Assembly (NCBI GenBank): GCA_000004985.1
Contig: GG738845.1
DNA: 64,000 nucleotides
Source: Naegleria gruberi
Taxonomy: Eukaryota
Direction: 5' to 3' (one strand)
Shown: positions 1,565 to 55,169 of the stretch, piece after piece
How the letters are laid out: every line of letters begins with the position of its first letter
Numbering within the stretch: position 1 is the first letter of the stretch
Notes under the pieces: model-generated
Told to the model about the DNA's origin: nothing
The model's input: only the letters and a program-made list of their open reading frames with translations
Databases searched by the model: none
Translations under genes and position numbers: made by a program

Positions 1565-4099
1565 ATGAGTTCTCAACTGCACTTGAAACGTCAACAAAAA
1601 CAAATTCAAGATGCAATCGATAAATACTACTCTGGAATATCTAATGACAATGCTATGGATATAAAAAAGGATACACAATTATTATCTGGTCTTGTTGGAT
1701 ATCTTTCCGGATTTCAAGAGAGTGATTTGGCCTTTGAAACAAGAGGTGATGTCATTGAGAGATTTTTCGAAAAGTATTATAACAGTTTTATGAATGGTGG
1801 TAATTATCCACCTGAATTATATTCCGATAAAACAATTTGGGATTTGTGGCTTTTATATGCAGAGGCTCATACCAATGATCCTATTCCACACATTCAAACT
1901 CTACTTGAATTTGCTCCTAAATATCCAAAGTTATTTGAGGTCTGGGCCACTTGGTCGAGAAGAACAGGACGTATTGATGATGAATTAACAGCATATGAGG
2001 AGGCTGAAACGAGAGGTGTTGTATCCGAATTGTTATCGAGCATGAAACAAGACAGATCCGAATATTTCCAACCTCCACCATCACAACAACAAACAATTCC
2101 TGAACCTAAGATTAAAACCACCACCACCGTAACTAATACTGTAATCAAACAACCTGTTGCACATCAATCTGTGGAAACATTGGTTAACAATCCAAGACCA
2201 CCTTCACCAACCCCACAAAATTATTTGATTGGATATGACAAGAATCTAATCTTTACTCCAGGTGCAGAGTTTACTTTTGAGGAATTGAGAGCAATGCACT
2301 ATTTAAATACCACTGATTTAATGATTAATCACAAACAAACAATACCTAGTTCATCATCAATTTCACACAACCAATCTTTAATTGAACAACCTAAGCATCA
2401 TGATTCCTCTATTCTTATGAATAAGAATTTTGAAAAACCATCAAGCAAACCTCAACAAAAAGACGACGACTTTGAATTTGATTTTTCAAGTGATATTACC
2501 ACAGTACATGCAAGAAAATCAATGGCTGCAACTCCTACTTCTTACGCTCAACATACTATTGCCAGCTTTTTTGAGGGAACCATTGATACTGAAATTGAAA
2601 ACAATTACTTTGAACAACGAAAGTTCCGTAAAGTGCAAGAACAAGAGAAAAAGAGAAAACTTGATGAAATTTCACAATCAACAAATAATAATTTTGCCAT
2701 ACATGAAGATACAACAGCTGAAATTAAGAAATCTAGGCTGACAGCTCAACCATCCAGTAGTACCTTTAAAATACCATCTCAGACATCTTCTGGCTTTCAA
2801 AATACAAGTCTTCAACAAGAACGTTCATTCTCTCAAAGAAATAGATCCCTAAGTGCATTCCATCAGTTTAATGATACAGGAGATGAATCAGGTCTCTATT
2901 TTGGAGATGAATCTAACATTTCAAAAACTTTCATTGTTGATAGACAGCAAGAAAGTGCGATATCATTGGAAGGAATATCAGCCCTTATTTCAAAATACAC
3001 AAATAATGGAGTAATCAATCCGTACATGGAAGATATACGAAAAGTGTATACTAATATTGTTAACATAACTAATTGCTTTAAAGACAGTCGTATTACTGAC
3101 TGTAAAGGAGTTGAATCTATAGATTTAAAAACTATTCTGCTGGAGCTAAGTAAAAAGAAGAAAGGTATCGACTATAATACTCAAACATTAAGCTTGAAGT
3201 TGAGTACAAAGACATACCTTGCCGAAGAAGCACTATCTGAACATGTGATCAAAATACAGGATGTAAGAAGTAACAATGGAATTAATACCAAATCATTTGC
3301 CTTGAAATTTAAGCCACCAAATGATTTCTATGAGTACTATGTGATCGATCAGCTGTATAGAAGAATACCAGAGAAGGAAAATCATAGATTCCCAAATATT
3401 CAAAGAGTTTATGTTATGGATAATGATATTCTATTGATGGAAAACCTTGTAAATAACATTACTCTCACACAGGCAATATCACAAGCAAAAATTGAGGAAA
3501 CAATTGCTTTGTACTATACTTTAGAACTTCTCAATATTTTGCAAACTCTGCATAATAAGGCAAACATTACACACAATAATATTTCTCCATCTAATTTATT
3601 GCTTTTAAATGAAGATACTGATCTATCTGATTGGAGTATAGATGGAAAGGGTTGGAGTAATAAGGGTCTACTGCTCACCAACTTTTCCAGGTCTATTGAT
3701 TTAGAACTATTTCCAAACCGTGTTGTTTTCCAAAGTGAACCCAAAACATTACCAGAAGTTTTCAAATCATCAATACAATATCCAAACAAGTGGAAATATG
3801 CATCAGATACTTGGAGTGTTTGTAACATCATCCACCAAATGCTTTTTAAGAAGGACATGGAGGTAACAACGAACGCTCAAGACAAGTATCTAATTAAGGA
3901 ATCCATAAGGAGATTCTGGAAATTTAGAGATGTTTGGCAAACCATTTTCGATACTTTACTAAATCTTGACCAGACAAAGAGTCCAGATTATTACCAATTA
4001 ATAGAAATGTGTCAACAGGCGTTAGGAACAAATGGAGACACAGTTAAAGCTCTTTTCTTGAGATTCATTGTCTCACTTTCTACTCAATTAAAACACTAA
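1565..4099 (+). CDS. BUB1/MAD3 (BubR1)-like spindle-checkpoint protein with a degenerate C-terminal kinase domain
   Basis: The N-terminus carries the Mad3/BUB1 homology TPR-like region (IWDLWLLYAEAHTNDPIP...LFEVWATWSRRTGRIDDELTAYEEAETRG). The C-terminal kinase-like fold has HRD replaced by THNNISPSN and no canonical DFG (LTNFSRSIDL). KEN at EKENHRF. E2F-like site 35 bp upstream. Confidence 0.6.
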   Translation: MSSQLHLKRQQKQIQDAIDKYYSGISNDNAMDIKKDTQLLSGLVGYLSGFQESDLAFETRGDVIERFFEKYYNSFMNGGNYPPELYSDKTIWDLWLLYAEAHTNDPIPHIQTLLEFAPKYPKLFEVWATWSRRTGRIDDELTAYEEAETRGVVSELLSSMKQDRSEYFQPPPSQQQTIPEPKIKTTTTVTNTVIKQPVAHQSVETLVNNPRPPSPTPQNYLIGYDKNLIFTPGAEFTFEELRAMHYLNTTDLMINHKQTIPSSSSISHNQSLIEQPKHHDSSILMNKNFEKPSSKPQQKDDDFEFDFSSDITTVHARKSMAATPTSYAQHTIASFFEGTIDTEIENNYFEQRKFRKVQEQEKKRKLDEISQSTNNNFAIHEDTTAEIKKSRLTAQPSSSTFKIPSQTSSGFQNTSLQQERSFSQRNRSLSAFHQFNDTGDESGLYFGDESNISKTFIVDRQQESAISLEGISALISKYTNNGVINPYMEDIRKVYTNIVNITNCFKDSRITDCKGVESIDLKTILLELSKKKKGIDYNTQTLSLKLSTKTYLAEEALSEHVIKIQDVRSNNGINTKSFALKFKPPNDFYEYYVIDQLYRRIPEKENHRFPNIQRVYVMDNDILLMENLVNNITLTQAISQAKIEETIALYYTLELLNILQTLHNKANITHNNISPSNLLLLNEDTDLSDWSIDGKGWSNKGLLLTNFSRSIDLELFPNRVVFQSEPKTLPEVFKSSIQYPNKWKYASDTWSVCNIIHQMLFKKDMEVTTNAQDKYLIKESIRRFWKFRDVWQTIFDTLLNLDQTKSPDYYQLIEMCQQALGTNGDTVKALFLRFIVSLSTQLKH

Positions 4100-4254
4100 T
4101 GTACAAATTAACTTAATTTATTAAAATATAAAGTTATCTAAACTTTTTTACCTTCCTTTAGCTGTTGTTAGTATTTAATTTGTGCAGATTATTAACTGAA
4201 AAGTTTGCCAATCTGATATTCTAAACACGGTTGATTTTCACCCACTTTTCTAGC

Positions 4255-5499
4255 TCAATTGAATATTTCCCAAATACCTCTTAAAGTCTTGTGATGAACA
4301 GCATAGGGTATTTCTAATCCTCCTCTCAATAATTTGAGTACATCAATTCCCATCATCATACCCACCATTCCTGAAATTTCTCCCAAAAGACCTTCAATGC
4401 TAGAGGTTAACACTTCTGTAATTCTGTTCTCATTGAGAGAGGAGTAAGCAAACGAAATGACAACTACATCTTTTTCAACCTCAGTCAATTTGACGATAGA
4501 GAGTTTTGATTCCCACCGAACTGAAACAAGAGACGGATCTTCAATTGTTGGCTTCAATCGAGTAGTGACATATTTTGTAAGGACGAAATAATTATCAACC
4601 TTGGAGATTGCAAAATTTGTTTCTGCAAACACTGGTGGGACTGTACCAGGTTCGTGGAAAGAAACTTGCAACCCGAATCTAGCATCTCGTTCCACTGGAG
4701 CTAGTGGTACTCTAAAGAATAAACTAATGGTGCCTCCATAACCAGTTGCATTGGCTGCCAATAGGTTCTGAGTATCATTATTAAATACTACAATTTCCAA
4801 AATGAAAATAATGGTTAGCTTTTCATTGATTCAACCAAACCTACCGTAACAAGTAAAATATTGGCCATTTTGTTCAATCTCTGTTATGGTGTGAGGAAGT
4901 TCAAACTGCTCAATAGTTCCATACTCTTGATTGACTGTTGTTGAATACATTAGTGTAAGATTACAATAATCACAATCCAAAGCAGCATTCCAATTACAAA
5001 CCGTAATAGCAGGATAGTAGAGAGGTAAAGACTCCACATACGCCAATGAGGTTGTTGGATTACCCAAAGAAGTGACATAATTACTAATGGAATTACTGAT
5101 ATACCAAGCTACAAACACAATGACCATAATCCATGCCACAAATGTAATGGCTTCTCCTATTGTAAAATTGAATCTTAATCTTCCTTTTTTTGCCTTTACA
5201 ACCACCAGATCTTCATCCTTTTCCATCTCTACTGGTTTCTTATCATTCTGTAAAGGTATGTGAATAGGAGAAGCATTCTCTTTAAATTCACCACTCGAAT
5301 CAGCTAATTGCAATCCAGAAACTATTGAAATAGAGAGTGGTATTTGTGTTTTCGTCTCATATTCCGATAAGCTCTGTTGCTTAATCAATGGTGACTCACT
5401 ATTTACACTACTAGCTGTTGAAAATTCCCTACTATTTTGTCTTCCGTTTATTGTTGATGATGAGAGAGTGGAGAGATTCCCCCTACTTTGTTCATTCAT
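4255..5499 (-). CDS. DEG/ENaC (degenerin / epithelial Na+ channel)-like two-TM channel subunit with a short extracellular domain; 2 exons, about 57-nt intron near 4788..4844
   Basis: ORFs 4831..5499 and 4255..4800 join in frame through GTAGGT...TTGTAG, giving ...FTCY-V-FNNDTQ. TM1 is ITFVAWIMVIVFVAWYI, followed by the family hallmark YYPAITVCNWN (compare FPAVTLCN). There is a Cys-rich ectodomain. The pre-TM2/TM2 segment LLGEISGMVGMMMGIDVLKLL aligns to LLSDIGGQLGLWIGASVL. Confidence 0.5.
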
Positions 5500-5545
5500 T
5501 TTTTTCTGTTTAAAAATGGCTATGATTCAAAAAATTCGTAAAACT

Positions 5546-5557
5546 TTTGGCGGAACA
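5546..5557. promoter_or_regulatory. E2F-like half-site TTTTGGCGGAAC, about 50 bp upstream of the minus-strand gene starting at 5499
   Basis: TTTGGCGG core in the 5' flank. Confidence 0.25.
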
Positions 5558-5702
5558 ACTTTTTGGAAGTTCATCTCTGCAACTCTTAATGTTCCAATGA
5601 TGGATTTTGAATCATTGTGATGTTGAGGATCTTTATTGTAATAACAATGAGATCTAGTGAAAATTTAAACCTAATACAGTTGATTGAGATAATCTTACTA
5701 AT

Positions 5703-6545
5703 TTATACAAGTTTTGAAATGTTTTTGTGTAAATTGTCTTCCGAGAAGGATGAGATGAGAGAACAGTTGAATTCATCATAATTAATAACTCTATTTGTTT
5801 GGCCCATTAACATGAGCAAGTCGCCATTCCTTATAACACTCTCCTTAATGATGGTTTTTCCATCATAGTCATACTTAAGATTTGAATCATTACACAGTAC
5901 TTTCATATGATTGACTCGAGCAAAATCTTGAAGTGAATCAAGGAGAGGACTTAACTCTCTCGAATGTAGATAAAGAGTTCGTTCTCTTTGCAAGATGGTC
6001 AGTAATTCGTCCTTTTGGAGTGCTTTCAGTTCTCCACCATTGAGTAGACGATCCGATAGATCAATTTGTATCAGTTCTCGAGTGGAATTATCTCTCAAAT
6101 CTCTTTGGAAAATGAAATCCAATGGCTTTTTGAAAAGTAAATATTCCACCAATACTTGATTGGAAAACATGGATTCCTTCTCAACACGATAATGAAGAGC
6201 AACAATGTCTCTATCACTCCTACTACTTGTTGGTTGCTTCATTTCTTTCAAATTGGGAGCACAGAATTGTGGCTTTTCCAGTATGATATCATTATCTAAA
6301 CTTGATGTCTTGATGAATCCATATATCTTGGTCTTTCTTCCATCGAGTAAAAGCTCATCCCGTGGCAGCGTTTTATATTCATCCTTTATTTGAGTGAGAA
6401 GTTGATCTACATATCGTGATCGGAAGAGTGAAAAATTTCTTGTTGAGTTATGACGACCATGAAATATTATGGATGACGATGATGATCCATGTAAGATGTT
6501 GTATTTAATAATTAAATTGTTGCTTCCAGTTGTTAGTCTTTTCAT
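5703..6545 (-). CDS. hypothetical protein (280 aa)
   Basis: Long ATG ORF, Ser-rich N-terminus, no recognisable domain. Confidence 0.4.
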   Translation of the reverse strand: MKRLTTGSNNLIIKYNILHGSSSSSIIFHGRHNSTRNFSLFRSRYVDQLLTQIKDEYKTLPRDELLLDGRKTKIYGFIKTSSLDNDIILEKPQFCAPNLKEMKQPTSSRSDRDIVALHYRVEKESMFSNQVLVEYLLFKKPLDFIFQRDLRDNSTRELIQIDLSDRLLNGGELKALQKDELLTILQRERTLYLHSRELSPLLDSLQDFARVNHMKVLCNDSNLKYDYDGKTIIKESVIRNGDLLMLMGQTNRVINYDEFNCSLISSFSEDNLHKNISKLV

Positions 6546-6601
6546 TTTTTTGAATTTGATTTATTTCATTCTAAATATTTTTTAAAACTCAACGATTTGT
6601 A

Positions 6602-6612
6602 TTGGCGCCAAA
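6602..6612. promoter_or_regulatory. E2F-like palindrome TTGGCGCCAAA in the divergent intergenic region
   Basis: Lies about 56 bp upstream of the minus-strand ATG at 6545 and about 155 bp upstream of the F-box gene ATG. Confidence 0.4.
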
Positions 6613-6768
6613 CATGAGTTCAAGTGTTATAGGCAGCAATTTCAACTACATTCATGTTGCAATGGCCAATATAAATTTAAGAAAACCTAATTTAAATATT
6701 GATAATGATTTAGGGGAATGTCCAAATGTTCTTAATGTTCTCTAAGGTTGGAGTTTTTTAAAAAAAAA

Positions 6769-7911
6769 ATGCTTACAAATCTCCCTCAAGAAATTCATCA
6801 CGAAATTTTCACCTATCTAGACTATGTGGGTGAATTGTGTCGATATAAGAAACTCATGATTCCTCGATTTAATCTCTCGGAGTGGACAAGAGAGGAATTT
6901 GAGAGTAAAATTATGGATTCTAATGATGAAATTTGCACCGATCAACTCGATGTTAACTTTGATAAGAAACCACTCTTTTTAACTTGTAAGGCATTCTACC
7001 ATTCCGTACAGAGTTTTAAACCACTCTCTTTACATTTTAAAATTTTAGGAAGAAGTCAGAGTCCAAAACATGAATTTGATTTTTATAAATCGTTTTTGAT
7101 ATCTTTGTTTTCAAGTCATGATGATAAGAAACCTAAGAAGACTAATAGAGGTGATTATTCAGAGATGATATATGAATTTATTCAGAATATTGAAAAATTC
7201 ACAAATTCATCTTTTACCTTTGAAAATGTTGAACATGTAGAATTTTGGAGCAGTGAATTGAAATTCTTTTCAAATTGCGATTTAAGCAAATTGATTTTGA
7301 GTAATTTTTACAATGTAAAAGTTGTAAATGTTAACTTTAGCGGAAATTACAGTAAAACTTTGCATTTTAGAGTTATAGAATGTCAAAGATTGAACAAATC
7401 ATTTGTTGGACCTAAAATACACTCTAATTTCAATAGTACAAGAATTAATGTGGACGATTTAGATAGAATCTTCTCTCCAGGCTATATTTTGAATATAGAG
7501 GCGTACTTATTGAGTGCTATTGAAACAAACTTTCAAATAGTATTCGATTACATATTGAGTAGATATAGGATTGACATTGAATATTTCATTTATCTGTGTA
7601 ATGTACAACCGAATTTTCTGTTTGGTGAAGACAAGAGTTTAGAATCAGTTTTGCAAATGCTACAAAAACTTCATAACAAGTATCCAAAATTTAAATTGTT
7701 TCACTTGCCAATTTATTCAGTGAATTATTTCAAATTGCTTCCAAGGTATTCATTTGTGGATTTGGATTTATCAAGAAATTTATCATTGAAGTTTGTTAAA
7801 ACAATTTGGAGCAACCCTCAATTGAAAGAAATGACCATTACAAGGAGTGGAAATGACCTTTCGGATTGGGGAGAGTTAATTAATTCGCTAGAATTCAATC
7901 GTGGTTGTTGA
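6769..7911 (+). CDS. F-box domain protein
   Basis: N-terminal F-box motif LTNLPQEIHHEIFTYLDYVGELCRYKKL. The ORF track starts at an in-frame TTG (6748). The first ATG is at about 6769. Confidence 0.5.
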   Translation: MLTNLPQEIHHEIFTYLDYVGELCRYKKLMIPRFNLSEWTREEFESKIMDSNDEICTDQLDVNFDKKPLFLTCKAFYHSVQSFKPLSLHFKILGRSQSPKHEFDFYKSFLISLFSSHDDKKPKKTNRGDYSEMIYEFIQNIEKFTNSSFTFENVEHVEFWSSELKFFSNCDLSKLILSNFYNVKVVNVNFSGNYSKTLHFRVIECQRLNKSFVGPKIHSNFNSTRINVDDLDRIFSPGYILNIEAYLLSAIETNFQIVFDYILSRYRIDIEYFIYLCNVQPNFLFGEDKSLESVLQMLQKLHNKYPKFKLFHLPIYSVNYFKLLPRYSFVDLDLSRNLSLKFVKTIWSNPQLKEMTITRSGNDLSDWGELINSLEFNRGC

Positions 7912-8047
7912 AACTTGGTTTGTTATTAAATAAACGTTTCAGAGATTTTCATTTCCCTTTTCTTCCATGTCACATTTTACTTCTTTCCCGCGTTAAAAAT
8001 CATCTCTCCTTTCTTTATAATAACATGCTTAGAGGTCATCAATAGAT

Positions 8048-8138
8048 GGTGAGTTGGTCGAGTGGTCTAAGACGACACGTTAAGGTATGATTAATACCGT
8101 GTTCCGCAAGGGCGTGGGTTCAAATCCCACACTCATCA
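8048..8138 (+). tRNA. tRNA-Leu (anticodon AAG), type II, with an 11-nt intron 3' of position 37
   Basis: Acceptor stem GGTGAGT/ACTCATC with a G2:U wobble, then discriminator A. D-arm GTCG..CGAC. Anticodon stem ACACG/CGTGT, loop TTAAGG[tatgattaata]C. Long variable arm. T-arm GTGGG TTCAAAT CCCAC. Internal A and B boxes present. Confidence 0.8.
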
Positions 8139-8607
8139 AATTTTGTGACCATCAATTGTGAGAAACTTTAAATACTGATCGATAACACTCTCAGATATCT
8201 CTAAAGTGGTATCGATAGTCATTTCAAATTTATTTATCCATTAAATGATTATAAATTAATTTTATTATTAATTATCAAATTATTTATTGATAATTTAAAT
8301 GGATTAAAATCATTAATTGAATTAAATATTTCACATTTTGATTTTAACATCTTAAATTCTAATAGTATATTAAATAATTCTTGTGCTTTAACTAGTATAC
8401 AAAAACAACACATTATCCCTAGCATTATCCACCCGATTATAAATTATATTAAGATAATATAAAACCAAATAAATCATTTACAAAAGCACATTATATGTAT
8501 TCATTATCTATTGCAATGATTCAATATATTAATATTTTCATCCAATTAGTTTGTAAAAAATCCAAGTTACTAAAAGAGTTAATTGTAAACAAAGTGGATA
8601 GAAAAAA

Positions 8608-10152
8608 ATGGCGACAAGGCAACCACAGCCCTCATCACATCAACCCCTGAATAATATTTCGCTGTCGTTTTTTGATATTTTGGCAGTTGTAGGTGTGATA
8701 TATATCGTGTTCCGAGTCTTACGTTGGTTATTGAAGAGTTACATCATGAGTGGCGTTGATAAAAAGTTAAATCACGACTCTTCTGTTCAGAAGAGAATGA
8801 TGAAGGAATATGCAAGTGGCGTGCTACCAACCTTGTCAAAATTTGAATTTATTACCACTGATGAGAATATTAGAGATGATGATGAAGATGCTCCTCTCTA
8901 TAAATTCCCTTTGAAAAAGATTGTTATTAGTGATCAATCTAAAATTGTTGATGGTATTGAAGTTGAGTACATGTGCAAGATGAGCGCACCAAATTTCAAG
9001 AGTGATGACGCAAGAAACTTTCACAATTACACTCCATCATGTAACATTTTCAATTCGCAATCAATTGAAAAAGACGAAAAATTGAGTAGTGTGGAGGAAA
9101 TTTATGTCTTTGTGCCTGGAAACCCTGGAAATTGCCTCATCTATCACGAGTTCTTGGAACGTTTATGTGAAAGATTAGACAATCAGGAAGAAGAAAAAAA
9201 CAGATTGGTAATTGCTGTTAGTTTGAGAGGTCATTCCTATTACTATCCTTCCCAATTTTGGCAAGGTTTGACCTTGTTTAAATCCAACTCTTCCTCCTCC
9301 TCATTATACCATTCGTTAGAGGCATACAATTTAAATGATCAGGTCGATTATTTTACATTAATTGTGCAAAAGTTGCATAGACAATTTCCAAATGCCAAAC
9401 TTATCTTACAGGGCCACTCCGTTGGGTGTTTTTTGATTTCCAAAGTTATGGAGCGATTGAATGTTTGCAAAAAGAAATCTCACCACCCAATAGTTCAGCC
9501 TCTTACACAAACAATTGTAGATAATGCAGTTGACAAATTAATATTCTTTTATCCGACTGTTCAAAACATGCACAGTGAAACTCCTAATGGACAATCTTTG
9601 CTTCAGTATGCAATCAAAGCTCCTCTTAGAGTTTATCTTGCCAATTTACTCTACAATTTAGCTTCACCAATTCTTCCAACATTTGTGATTAGATTGTCAA
9701 GAAGATCGTCACCAATTCTTGTTCCATGGATTCCTTACTATGTTGATAGTATGAGAATTATTAAGAATGTTACAACCTTAGCTAGTCATGAGTTTGAAGA
9801 AATTTTGGATTCTTTTGGAAATGATTCATCTCAAAATACTTTCAAAGATGCTATGAGAGATCACAAAGATAAGTTGAGGGTTATCTTCTCTACGGCTGAT
9901 CTTTGGGTTCCAAGAAAACACGTTCTCTCATTCTTAGATCATGTATTTGATGTAAACTCATATGAAGGAAAAACCATCCTTGAATTGGAAAACTCAACAG
10001 TTGTGGACGAACAAGAATTTTGTAAGATTCTTGACAAGGCATGTTTGAATGTTGGAATATCAAATCAAGTAACATTTAGCCACACAACGCAACATGCCTT
10101 TGTTATCCATCAAGATAATTTGGAAATCACTAGTAAATTGCCTCTAAGATAG
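8608..10152 (+). CDS. alpha/beta-hydrolase, lipid-droplet-associated hydrolase (LDAH/DUF2305)-like, with an N-terminal TM segment
   Basis: VFVPGNPGN motif and nucleophile elbow GHSVG (LILQGHSVGCFL), as in the LDAH family. N-terminal hydrophobic helix FFDILAVVGVIYIVFRVL. Confidence 0.5.
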   Translation: MATRQPQPSSHQPLNNISLSFFDILAVVGVIYIVFRVLRWLLKSYIMSGVDKKLNHDSSVQKRMMKEYASGVLPTLSKFEFITTDENIRDDDEDAPLYKFPLKKIVISDQSKIVDGIEVEYMCKMSAPNFKSDDARNFHNYTPSCNIFNSQSIEKDEKLSSVEEIYVFVPGNPGNCLIYHEFLERLCERLDNQEEEKNRLVIAVSLRGHSYYYPSQFWQGLTLFKSNSSSSSLYHSLEAYNLNDQVDYFTLIVQKLHRQFPNAKLILQGHSVGCFLISKVMERLNVCKKKSHHPIVQPLTQTIVDNAVDKLIFFYPTVQNMHSETPNGQSLLQYAIKAPLRVYLANLLYNLASPILPTFVIRLSRRSSPILVPWIPYYVDSMRIIKNVTTLASHEFEEILDSFGNDSSQNTFKDAMRDHKDKLRVIFSTADLWVPRKHVLSFLDHVFDVNSYEGKTILELENSTVVDEQEFCKILDKACLNVGISNQVTFSHTTQHAFVIHQDNLEITSKLPLR

Positions 10153-55070: not shown

Positions 55071-55096
55071 AATATTTAATAATTAAAAAGAATGAG

Positions 55097-55169
55097 TGGA
55101 GATGCGGGGTATCGATCCCCGTACCTCTTCCATGCTAAAGAAGCGCTCTACCATGTGAGCTACATCCCC
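55097..55169 (-). tRNA. tRNA-Ala (anticodon AGC)
   Basis: The reverse complement folds as GGGGATG TA GCTC ACATGGTA GAGC G CTTCT TTAGCAT GGAAG AGGTA CGGGG ATCGATA CCCCG CATCTCC A. It carries the Ala-identity G3:U70 pair. A T-run terminator lies downstream (cttttt). Confidence 0.85.

Follow-up and report, generated by a model that had tools for sequence, protein, structure and literature searches.

NAEGRDRAFT_45284 of Naegleria gruberi very probably encodes a minimal, divergent DEG/ENaC superfamily protein

DEG/ENaC channels are usually called animal-specific, and both their ancestral function and their origin are unresolved. To our knowledge, they have so far been linked to the PAC/TMEM206 channels solely by fold; PAC anion selectivity uses a lysine in the second transmembrane helix (TM2). 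Studer, Person, Robinson-Rechavi, and Rossier reportedly described ENaC/degenerin homologues in Naegleria gruberi in 2011 and are said to have weighed vertical against lateral origin, leaving the lateral route open. Our literature search, which did not reach that paper, found no published statement of a Naegleria/ENaC link. Recent phylogenies limit the nonanimal members to heterokont and filasterean-related lineages (PMC10507113 among them). Homologues from Tunicaraptor unikontum and Cafeteria roenbergensis have served in arguments about how the family arose (Elkhatib et al. 2023, PMC10507113), and BLASTp of Discoba and Amoebozoa yielded no DEG/ENaC candidates (PMC10507113). Here we analyze NAEGRDRAFT_45284, a minus-strand gene in a 64,000-nucleotide stretch of N. 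gruberi contig GG738845.1 (assembly GCA_000004985.1; the window), which an earlier note made from the sequence had read as a short DEG/ENaC subunit. We consider it very probable that this is an intact, expressed-type gene whose product is a divergent and minimal protein of the DEG/ENaC (Pfam ASC) superfamily.

Sequence and profile searches placed the protein in this superfamily. In a hidden Markov model (HMM) search, the check proposed in the earlier note, Pfam ASC (PF00858) matched at 45.7 bits (E 6.3e-12), above its gathering score of 23.6, and no other Pfam family matched even at E ≤ 10. A single-sequence search of the PDB returned ASIC2/ASIC1 chains at about 3e-4 to 1e-3; a 9-sequence profile improved the best E to 1.7e-6, and a 40-sequence profile reached FaNaC at 3.8e-16, ASIC1 at 2.8e-15, and ENaC-alpha at 4.4e-10. 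The homologues fall into two types: a short family, to which the protein belongs, with 185–200 aa between the P-A-V-T-x-C-N motif and the TM2 glycine motif, and long-type matches, with 340–370 aa. Compared by HHalign, the short family and the long type (a profile of 16 sequences with an HG motif, G-x-S, and many cysteines) matched with 99.7% probability and E 2.4e-25 over 274 columns, from the first transmembrane helix (TM1) to TM2. All five further short-family members that were tested exceed the ASC cut-off. A chance-motif reading was rejected on the Pfam and profile–profile statistics.

The alignments rest on specific blocks. The post-TM1 motif YYPAITVCNWN, singled out in the earlier note, aligns ungapped by HMMER to VFPAVTLCNLN of ASIC2, and to ASIC1 as well; P163, T166, C168, and N169 within it are family-conserved. 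Downstream, TCYVFN (the C-Y-x-F-N block) aligns to KCYMFN of ASIC2, and C168 and C217, both conserved in 40/40 sequences of the family alignment, stand by alignment at the cysteine pair of the first conserved disulfide. The proposed residue-for-residue match of the pre-TM2/TM2 segment also held: in the PDB search, LLGEISGMVGMMMGIDVLKLL aligned ungapped to a 21-residue stretch of ASIC TM2.

The underlying gene model is secure. Two minus-strand open reading frames (ORFs), 4831–5499 (222 aa) and 4255–4800 (181 aa), join in frame through a 57-nt, phase-1 intron (GTAGGT...TTGTAG) into a 395-aa product that is letter-identical to EFC50870.1/XP_002683614.1/UniProt D2UX47, annotated as "predicted protein." The gene is real, and the splicing deduced in the earlier note equals the annotated model exactly. 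Homologue alignment agrees: the junction QYFTCY|VFNN corresponds to an uninterrupted QYFSCYVFNN in Naegleria homologues, and the C-terminally complete ones finish at the identical ...FN. The idea that the locus was unannotated was rejected when an exact look-up gave the annotated 395-aa protein inside a 90% cluster; its representative (P0015) is a 181-aa metagenome fragment, corresponding to exon 2, with a precomputed PF00858 match, and other Naegleria members carry such matches too. The presence of the gene and its family in N. gruberi is thus already on record and is not a discovery. By tblastn, no second copy of the protein was found in the whole window.

Sequence constraint bears on whether the locus could be a relic, either a pseudogene or an adhesion/receptor protein that keeps the fold only. 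The loss of several canonical gating and selectivity elements, described below, would fit such decay. Against it stand the intact ORF with its canonical intron and the comparison with a near-identical environmental strain on a 3.3-kb metagenome contig: the coding sequences differ at 13 sites, 11 synonymous and 2 nonsynonymous, both of the latter in the disordered N-tail, with zero amino-acid change from TM1 to the C-terminus. Intergenic DNA diverges by 3.75% between NEG-M and that strain. Moreover, in a family of about 21% mean identity, D367, K370, and the glycines of the pore hardly vary. A relic is accordingly most improbable, and the pseudogene version was rejected on the selection signal. 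The contig itself (L001; ENA ERZ929261, 3255 bp, PRJEB11402) corresponds to window 3527–6800, with ~98–99% identity over the gene and both neighbors, and its NEG-M-like sequence implies that a very close Naegleria strain is present in metagenome PRJEB11402. A search for contigs encoding the neighboring gene or the paralogue D2V6U6 returned none.

The DEG/ENaC assignment also agrees with predicted structure. Hydropathy peaks at residues 117–134 and about 360, and an AlphaFold2 (AF2) model from the 40-sequence alignment, N-trimmed, reached a predicted local distance difference test (pLDDT) score of 89.4 and a predicted TM-score (pTM) of 0.77. An earlier full-length run with 9 sequences (pLDDT 52; Foldseek TM-scores 0.2–0.3) was discarded. 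The model encloses ~12 β-strands, with a single 4-residue helix, between the two transmembrane helices (Table 1), which is the topology that the DEG/ENaC reading predicts, and its Foldseek comparison with ASIC gave E 1.6e-12 with TMq up to 0.63. The protein thus has two transmembrane helices around a large extracellular loop, a palm and β-ball core of the DEG/ENaC kind, and basic residues flanking the cytosolic sides, including KAKKGRLR at the end of the N-tail ahead of TM1. The subunit is laid out as a disordered cytosolic N-tail, TM1, an all-β ectodomain, TM2, and a short cytosolic C-tail, the cytosolic placement of both termini being our deduction. Together with the ASC match and this topology, the structure-based search, which groups the protein with ASIC, ENaC, and FaNaC, supports the original DEG/ENaC classification.

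The ectodomain is strongly reduced. The earlier note was right that it is shorter than in metazoan channels (~200 vs. ~370 aa), although its figure of about 230 aa was too high; the domain is nearer 200 aa, spanning about residues 147–348. HHalign localizes the reduction to two large deletions: most of the finger is lost in the stretch that separates the post-TM1 motif from the C-x-x-F-N block, and the Cys-rich thumb and the knuckle are lost after the central palm strands, ahead of the last two strands. The C-Y-x-F-N block (C217–N221) remains, and three N-x-S/T sequons occur (N180, N222, and N231). The loop that had been called Cys-rich is not so: it holds only four cysteines (168, 176, 179, and 217), against 9 invariant and 2 nearly invariant cysteine columns in the long-type alignment.

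TM2 retains the DEG/ENaC framework with an altered filter. The glycine ladder G354-x3-G358-x2-G361-x3-G365 is conserved in 38–40 of 40 family sequences, and Gly354 supplies the small residue at the "Deg" position, ungapped against ASIC. E357 occupies the position of ASIC D433, which keeps the outer acidic residue. In the motif L-L-x-x-x-G-G-x-x-G-L-x-x-G-x-S, the glycines are kept and the filter serine is replaced by aspartate; the reading of G-I-D at the filter position in the earlier note was correct. D367 and K370 are each conserved in 35/40 sequences, and K370 and R373 lie downstream of the G-I-D, where ASIC has T448 and E451 (E18′). Among regular-expression matches in 170 retrieved proteins, a set that includes duplicates and a few spurious entries, G-x-D was the commonest form, and long-type sequences carry G-x-S.

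Several of these features weigh against a straightforward DEG/ENaC cation channel. The HG motif, carried as TxHGxP in the long-type consensus, is missing from this protein and occurs upstream of TM1 in 1 of 34 short-family sequences. The G-x-S filter was sought and G-I-D was found; the Cys-rich thumb is absent by both cysteine count and HHalign deletion; and the AF2 ectodomain, with its one short helix, contains no helical finger, thumb, or knuckle subdomains. The AF2 TM2 is a single continuous helix without a GAS-belt-like break. Finally, the basic residues at the ASIC T448 and E18′ (E451) positions and the resemblance in size and fold to the anion channel PAC would also be compatible with anion conduction. 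The missing HG motif, thumb, finger, knuckle, and G-x-S mean that the properties of a "sodium channel" should not be assumed, and the K/R pair below the aspartate ring, with the loss of the E18′/D21′ acidic residues, means the same for Na+ selectivity in particular. The aspartate ring formed by D367 does argue for cations. We lean toward a channel for cations in which Na+ is only weakly selected and divalent ions may permeate or block.

By homology, the protein would be a pore-forming subunit of a voltage-independent channel gated by a ligand or another stimulus, a trimer in which three subunits, possibly with paralogues mixed in, would assemble around a central TM2-lined pore. It has no counterpart to the acidic pocket of ASIC, the inhibitory tracts of ENaC, or the peptide site of FaNaC. 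The modules that regulate animal channels (the thumb with the acidic pocket, the finger carrying protease or peptide sites, the knuckle, and the HG re-entrant loop) are all gone, so that the channel cannot be gated in the ASIC way by protons, in the ENaC way by proteolysis, or in the FaNaC way by peptides; because only the palm/β-ball core is left, the opening stimulus would have to reach either that core or the membrane. A stimulus sensed there would pass through the β1 and β12 strands directly to TM1 and TM2 and open the pore. What that amounts to in a freshwater amoeboflagellate is a guess: a constitutive conductance, or one modulated by an ion, by pH, or by osmotic stretch, none of which we hold to be likely taken singly.

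The breadth of the short family bears on its origin. An exhaustive HMM search over 1.84 billion cluster representatives gave 242 matches at E ≤ 1e-3. Tightening the cut-off to E ≤ 1e-10 left 96, nearly all of them short-type, and a clearly long-type match (G-A-S, 369-aa spacing; of the HG, G-x-S kind) first appeared at E 3e-10. N. gruberi has members at at least six loci (D2UX47, D2V6U6, D2VC18, D2V6F8, D2VVE1, and EFC35520), and both N. fowleri and N. lovaniensis have three. One amoebozoan member, Planoprotostelium fungivorum PROFUN_04723, is among three proteins from a word-index search (GDFAGM-type sub-alignment), and the short G-x-D type also turns up in environmental sequences that form dozens of divergent clusters. 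The alternative to an ancient eukaryotic lineage is lateral transfer between an animal and Naegleria, in either direction, with secondary reduction; if true, it would leave the protein with little evolutionary informativeness. The patchy known taxonomic distribution (PMC10507113) speaks for it. Set against this are the short G-x-D architecture common to several Naegleria species, PROFUN_04723, and the environmental clusters; the late first appearance of a long-type match in the ranking; and the multiple paralogues and spliceosomal intron. We judge lateral transfer unlikely.

Several further features of the short family were noted. Its C-terminus nearly always reads ...[WY]-x-x-F-N or ...F-N-G, from Naegleria to Planoprotostelium-like members; in the window the last 11 aa lie at 4258–4290, and N395 is conserved in 32/37 sequences. 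D2V6U6 (P0001, 492 aa) holds one channel copy and half of another in tandem, without the TM2 end, and looks like a mis-merged pair of adjacent paralogues. In D2VVE1 (P0034), channel homology is confined to about residues 1372–1563 of a 1563-aa model, which may be a fused one. N. fowleri FDP41_006660 adjoins FDP41_006661, and tandem duplication seems common in the short family.

The short-family profile also matched PAC/TMEM206. Chain 8h8d_A was found at E 6.7e-8 with profile A2 and at 5.4e-5 with the N-terminal sub-profile A4, and five more PAC chains (9hqn_A, 7jna_A, 8zlb_A, 8fbl_A, and 7ji3_A) at 1.4e-5 to 2.8e-3; unrelated transmembrane proteins (P2Y14) appeared only at E about 0.02. The match covers TM1 and "hP..SVSY.E......P.I" (profile positions about 6–96; window 4987–5160). 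At the level of sequence, this may be a bridge between DEG/ENaC and PAC. It also raises an alternative, for which the conserved K370/R373 in lower TM2 could be cited besides the profile matches over TM1 and the post-TM1 strand: instead of a DEG/ENaC-type cation channel, the protein could be a proton-activated anion channel that works like PAC/TMEM206, or could belong to that lineage. Similarity to PAC over the whole protein, including the TM2 lysine, was looked for and not found: the sequence match is limited to the N-terminal quarter, and in TM2 the glycine ladder aligns to DEG/ENaC instead of PAC, as do the CYxFN, FHE, and ETNFA blocks. The pore residues E357 and D367 are acidic, and ASC is the sole Pfam match even at E ≤ 10. 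A PAC-type channel is on this evidence very unlikely, and membership in DEG/ENaC remains our reading.

The short family might, as a tentative proposal that we hold at less than even confidence, constitute an undescribed ancient "minimal" branch of the DEG/ENaC–PAC fold, defined by a palm and β-ball only, no HG motif, a G-x-D belt with K/R below it, and an ...F-N end, with members in Discoba, in Amoebozoa, and among numerous uncultured protists. If inherited vertically, such a branch would shift the family origin back toward the last eukaryotic common ancestor; if real, it would offer a sequence-level bridge between DEG/ENaC and PAC/TMEM206, and its ion selectivity may be noncanonical (Ca2+-permeable, even anionic). 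A free-living excavate has a multigene DEG/ENaC family, in a minimal version made of pore and palm/β-ball core without the proton, peptide, or protease gating modules of animal channels. It is a natural test object for what the core alone can sense and for the residues that set selectivity. Four features appear to be previously undescribed: the reduced architecture, the G-x-D belt, how broadly the clade is distributed, and the weak PAC sequence link; the added value of the present work is description at the level of architecture. The 2011 study by Studer et al. is said to cover neither the wider short clade nor its G-x-D belt and reduced architecture. Recent DEG/ENaC phylogenies searched Discoba and Amoebozoa and missed the short clade (PMC10507113); the Naegleria/Planoprotostelium sequences fall outside that data set.

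Table 1. Features of NAEGRDRAFT_45284 in window coordinates
Feature	Position	Strand	Residues and basis
Exon 1	4845..5499	-	aa 1–218 and first base of codon 219; ATG 5499–5497; ORF list, splice reconstruction, identity to XP_002683614.1
Intron	4788..4844	-	splice reconstruction, homologue alignment, annotated protein
Exon 2	4255..4787	-	rest of codon 219 to aa 395; stop codon 4255–4257; C-terminal ...IFN* family-conserved
N-terminal cytosolic tail	5170..5499	-	aa 1–110; low complexity, predicted disordered; pLDDT <50 for residues 1–111; without HG
TM1 helix	5062..5160	-	aa 114–146; AF2 helix (model residues 25–57, pLDDT mostly >77); hydropathy; W123 and Y133 family-conserved
Post-TM1 motif YYPAITVCNWN	4987..5019	-	aa 161–171; equivalent to F-P-A-V-T-x-C-N
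Ectodomain	4399..5061 (includes intron)	-	aa 147–348; ~12 β-strands, palm and β-ball
Pre-TM2/TM2 helix	4291..4398	-	aa 349–384; AF2 helix (model residues 260–295); best-scoring PDB stretch vs. ASIC TM2
G365-I366-D367	4342..4350	-	at the G-A-S/G-x-S selectivity belt position; read directly from sequence

Elsewhere in the window, three single-exon ORFs are letter-identical to N. gruberi NEG-M EFC50560, EFC50568, and EFC50571, which lie on a 1.56-Mb scaffold; the window is therefore from N. gruberi. The convergent downstream neighbor at 1565–4099 (+) encodes 844 aa (NAEGRDRAFT_61632) with a subthreshold C-terminal protein-kinase match (29.5 bits; cut-off 31.7) and may be a pseudokinase or divergent kinase. 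An ORF at 8608–10152 (+) encodes a homologue of lipid-droplet-associated hydrolase (PF10230, 1.1e-31). A 93-nt tRNA gene at 8047–8139 (+; Rfam tRNA, 47.4 bits), whose anticodon ARAGORN did not name, probably contains an intron, and a tRNA-Ala(AGC) lies at 55096–55169 (-).

With the metazoan DEG/ENaC channels (ASIC1/2/5, ENaC alpha/beta/gamma, and FaNaC), the Naegleria protein shares the two-helix topology, F/Y-P-A-[IV]-T-x-C-N, C-Y-x-F-N, and the palm/β-ball core. Also shared are the glycine ladder of TM2 and, ahead of it, L-L-G-[DE], both of which align with ASIC without gaps. Besides its shorter ectodomain, it differs from them in having no HG motif and four cysteines, in lacking the Cys-rich thumb/knuckle entirely and the finger for the most part, in G-I-D for G-x-S, in K370/R373 at the T448/E451 positions, and in its conserved ...F-N C-terminus. 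The compact arthropod channels BRTNaC1 (8ymr, 431 aa) and PDPNaC1 (9jf7, 421 aa), themselves shorter than ASIC/ENaC, are matched by both sequence and fold. PAC/TMEM206/ASOR is likewise a compact two-helix subunit of ~350 aa with a mostly β ectodomain and the same fold, and the Naegleria protein has the compact ASIC-like fold seen there.
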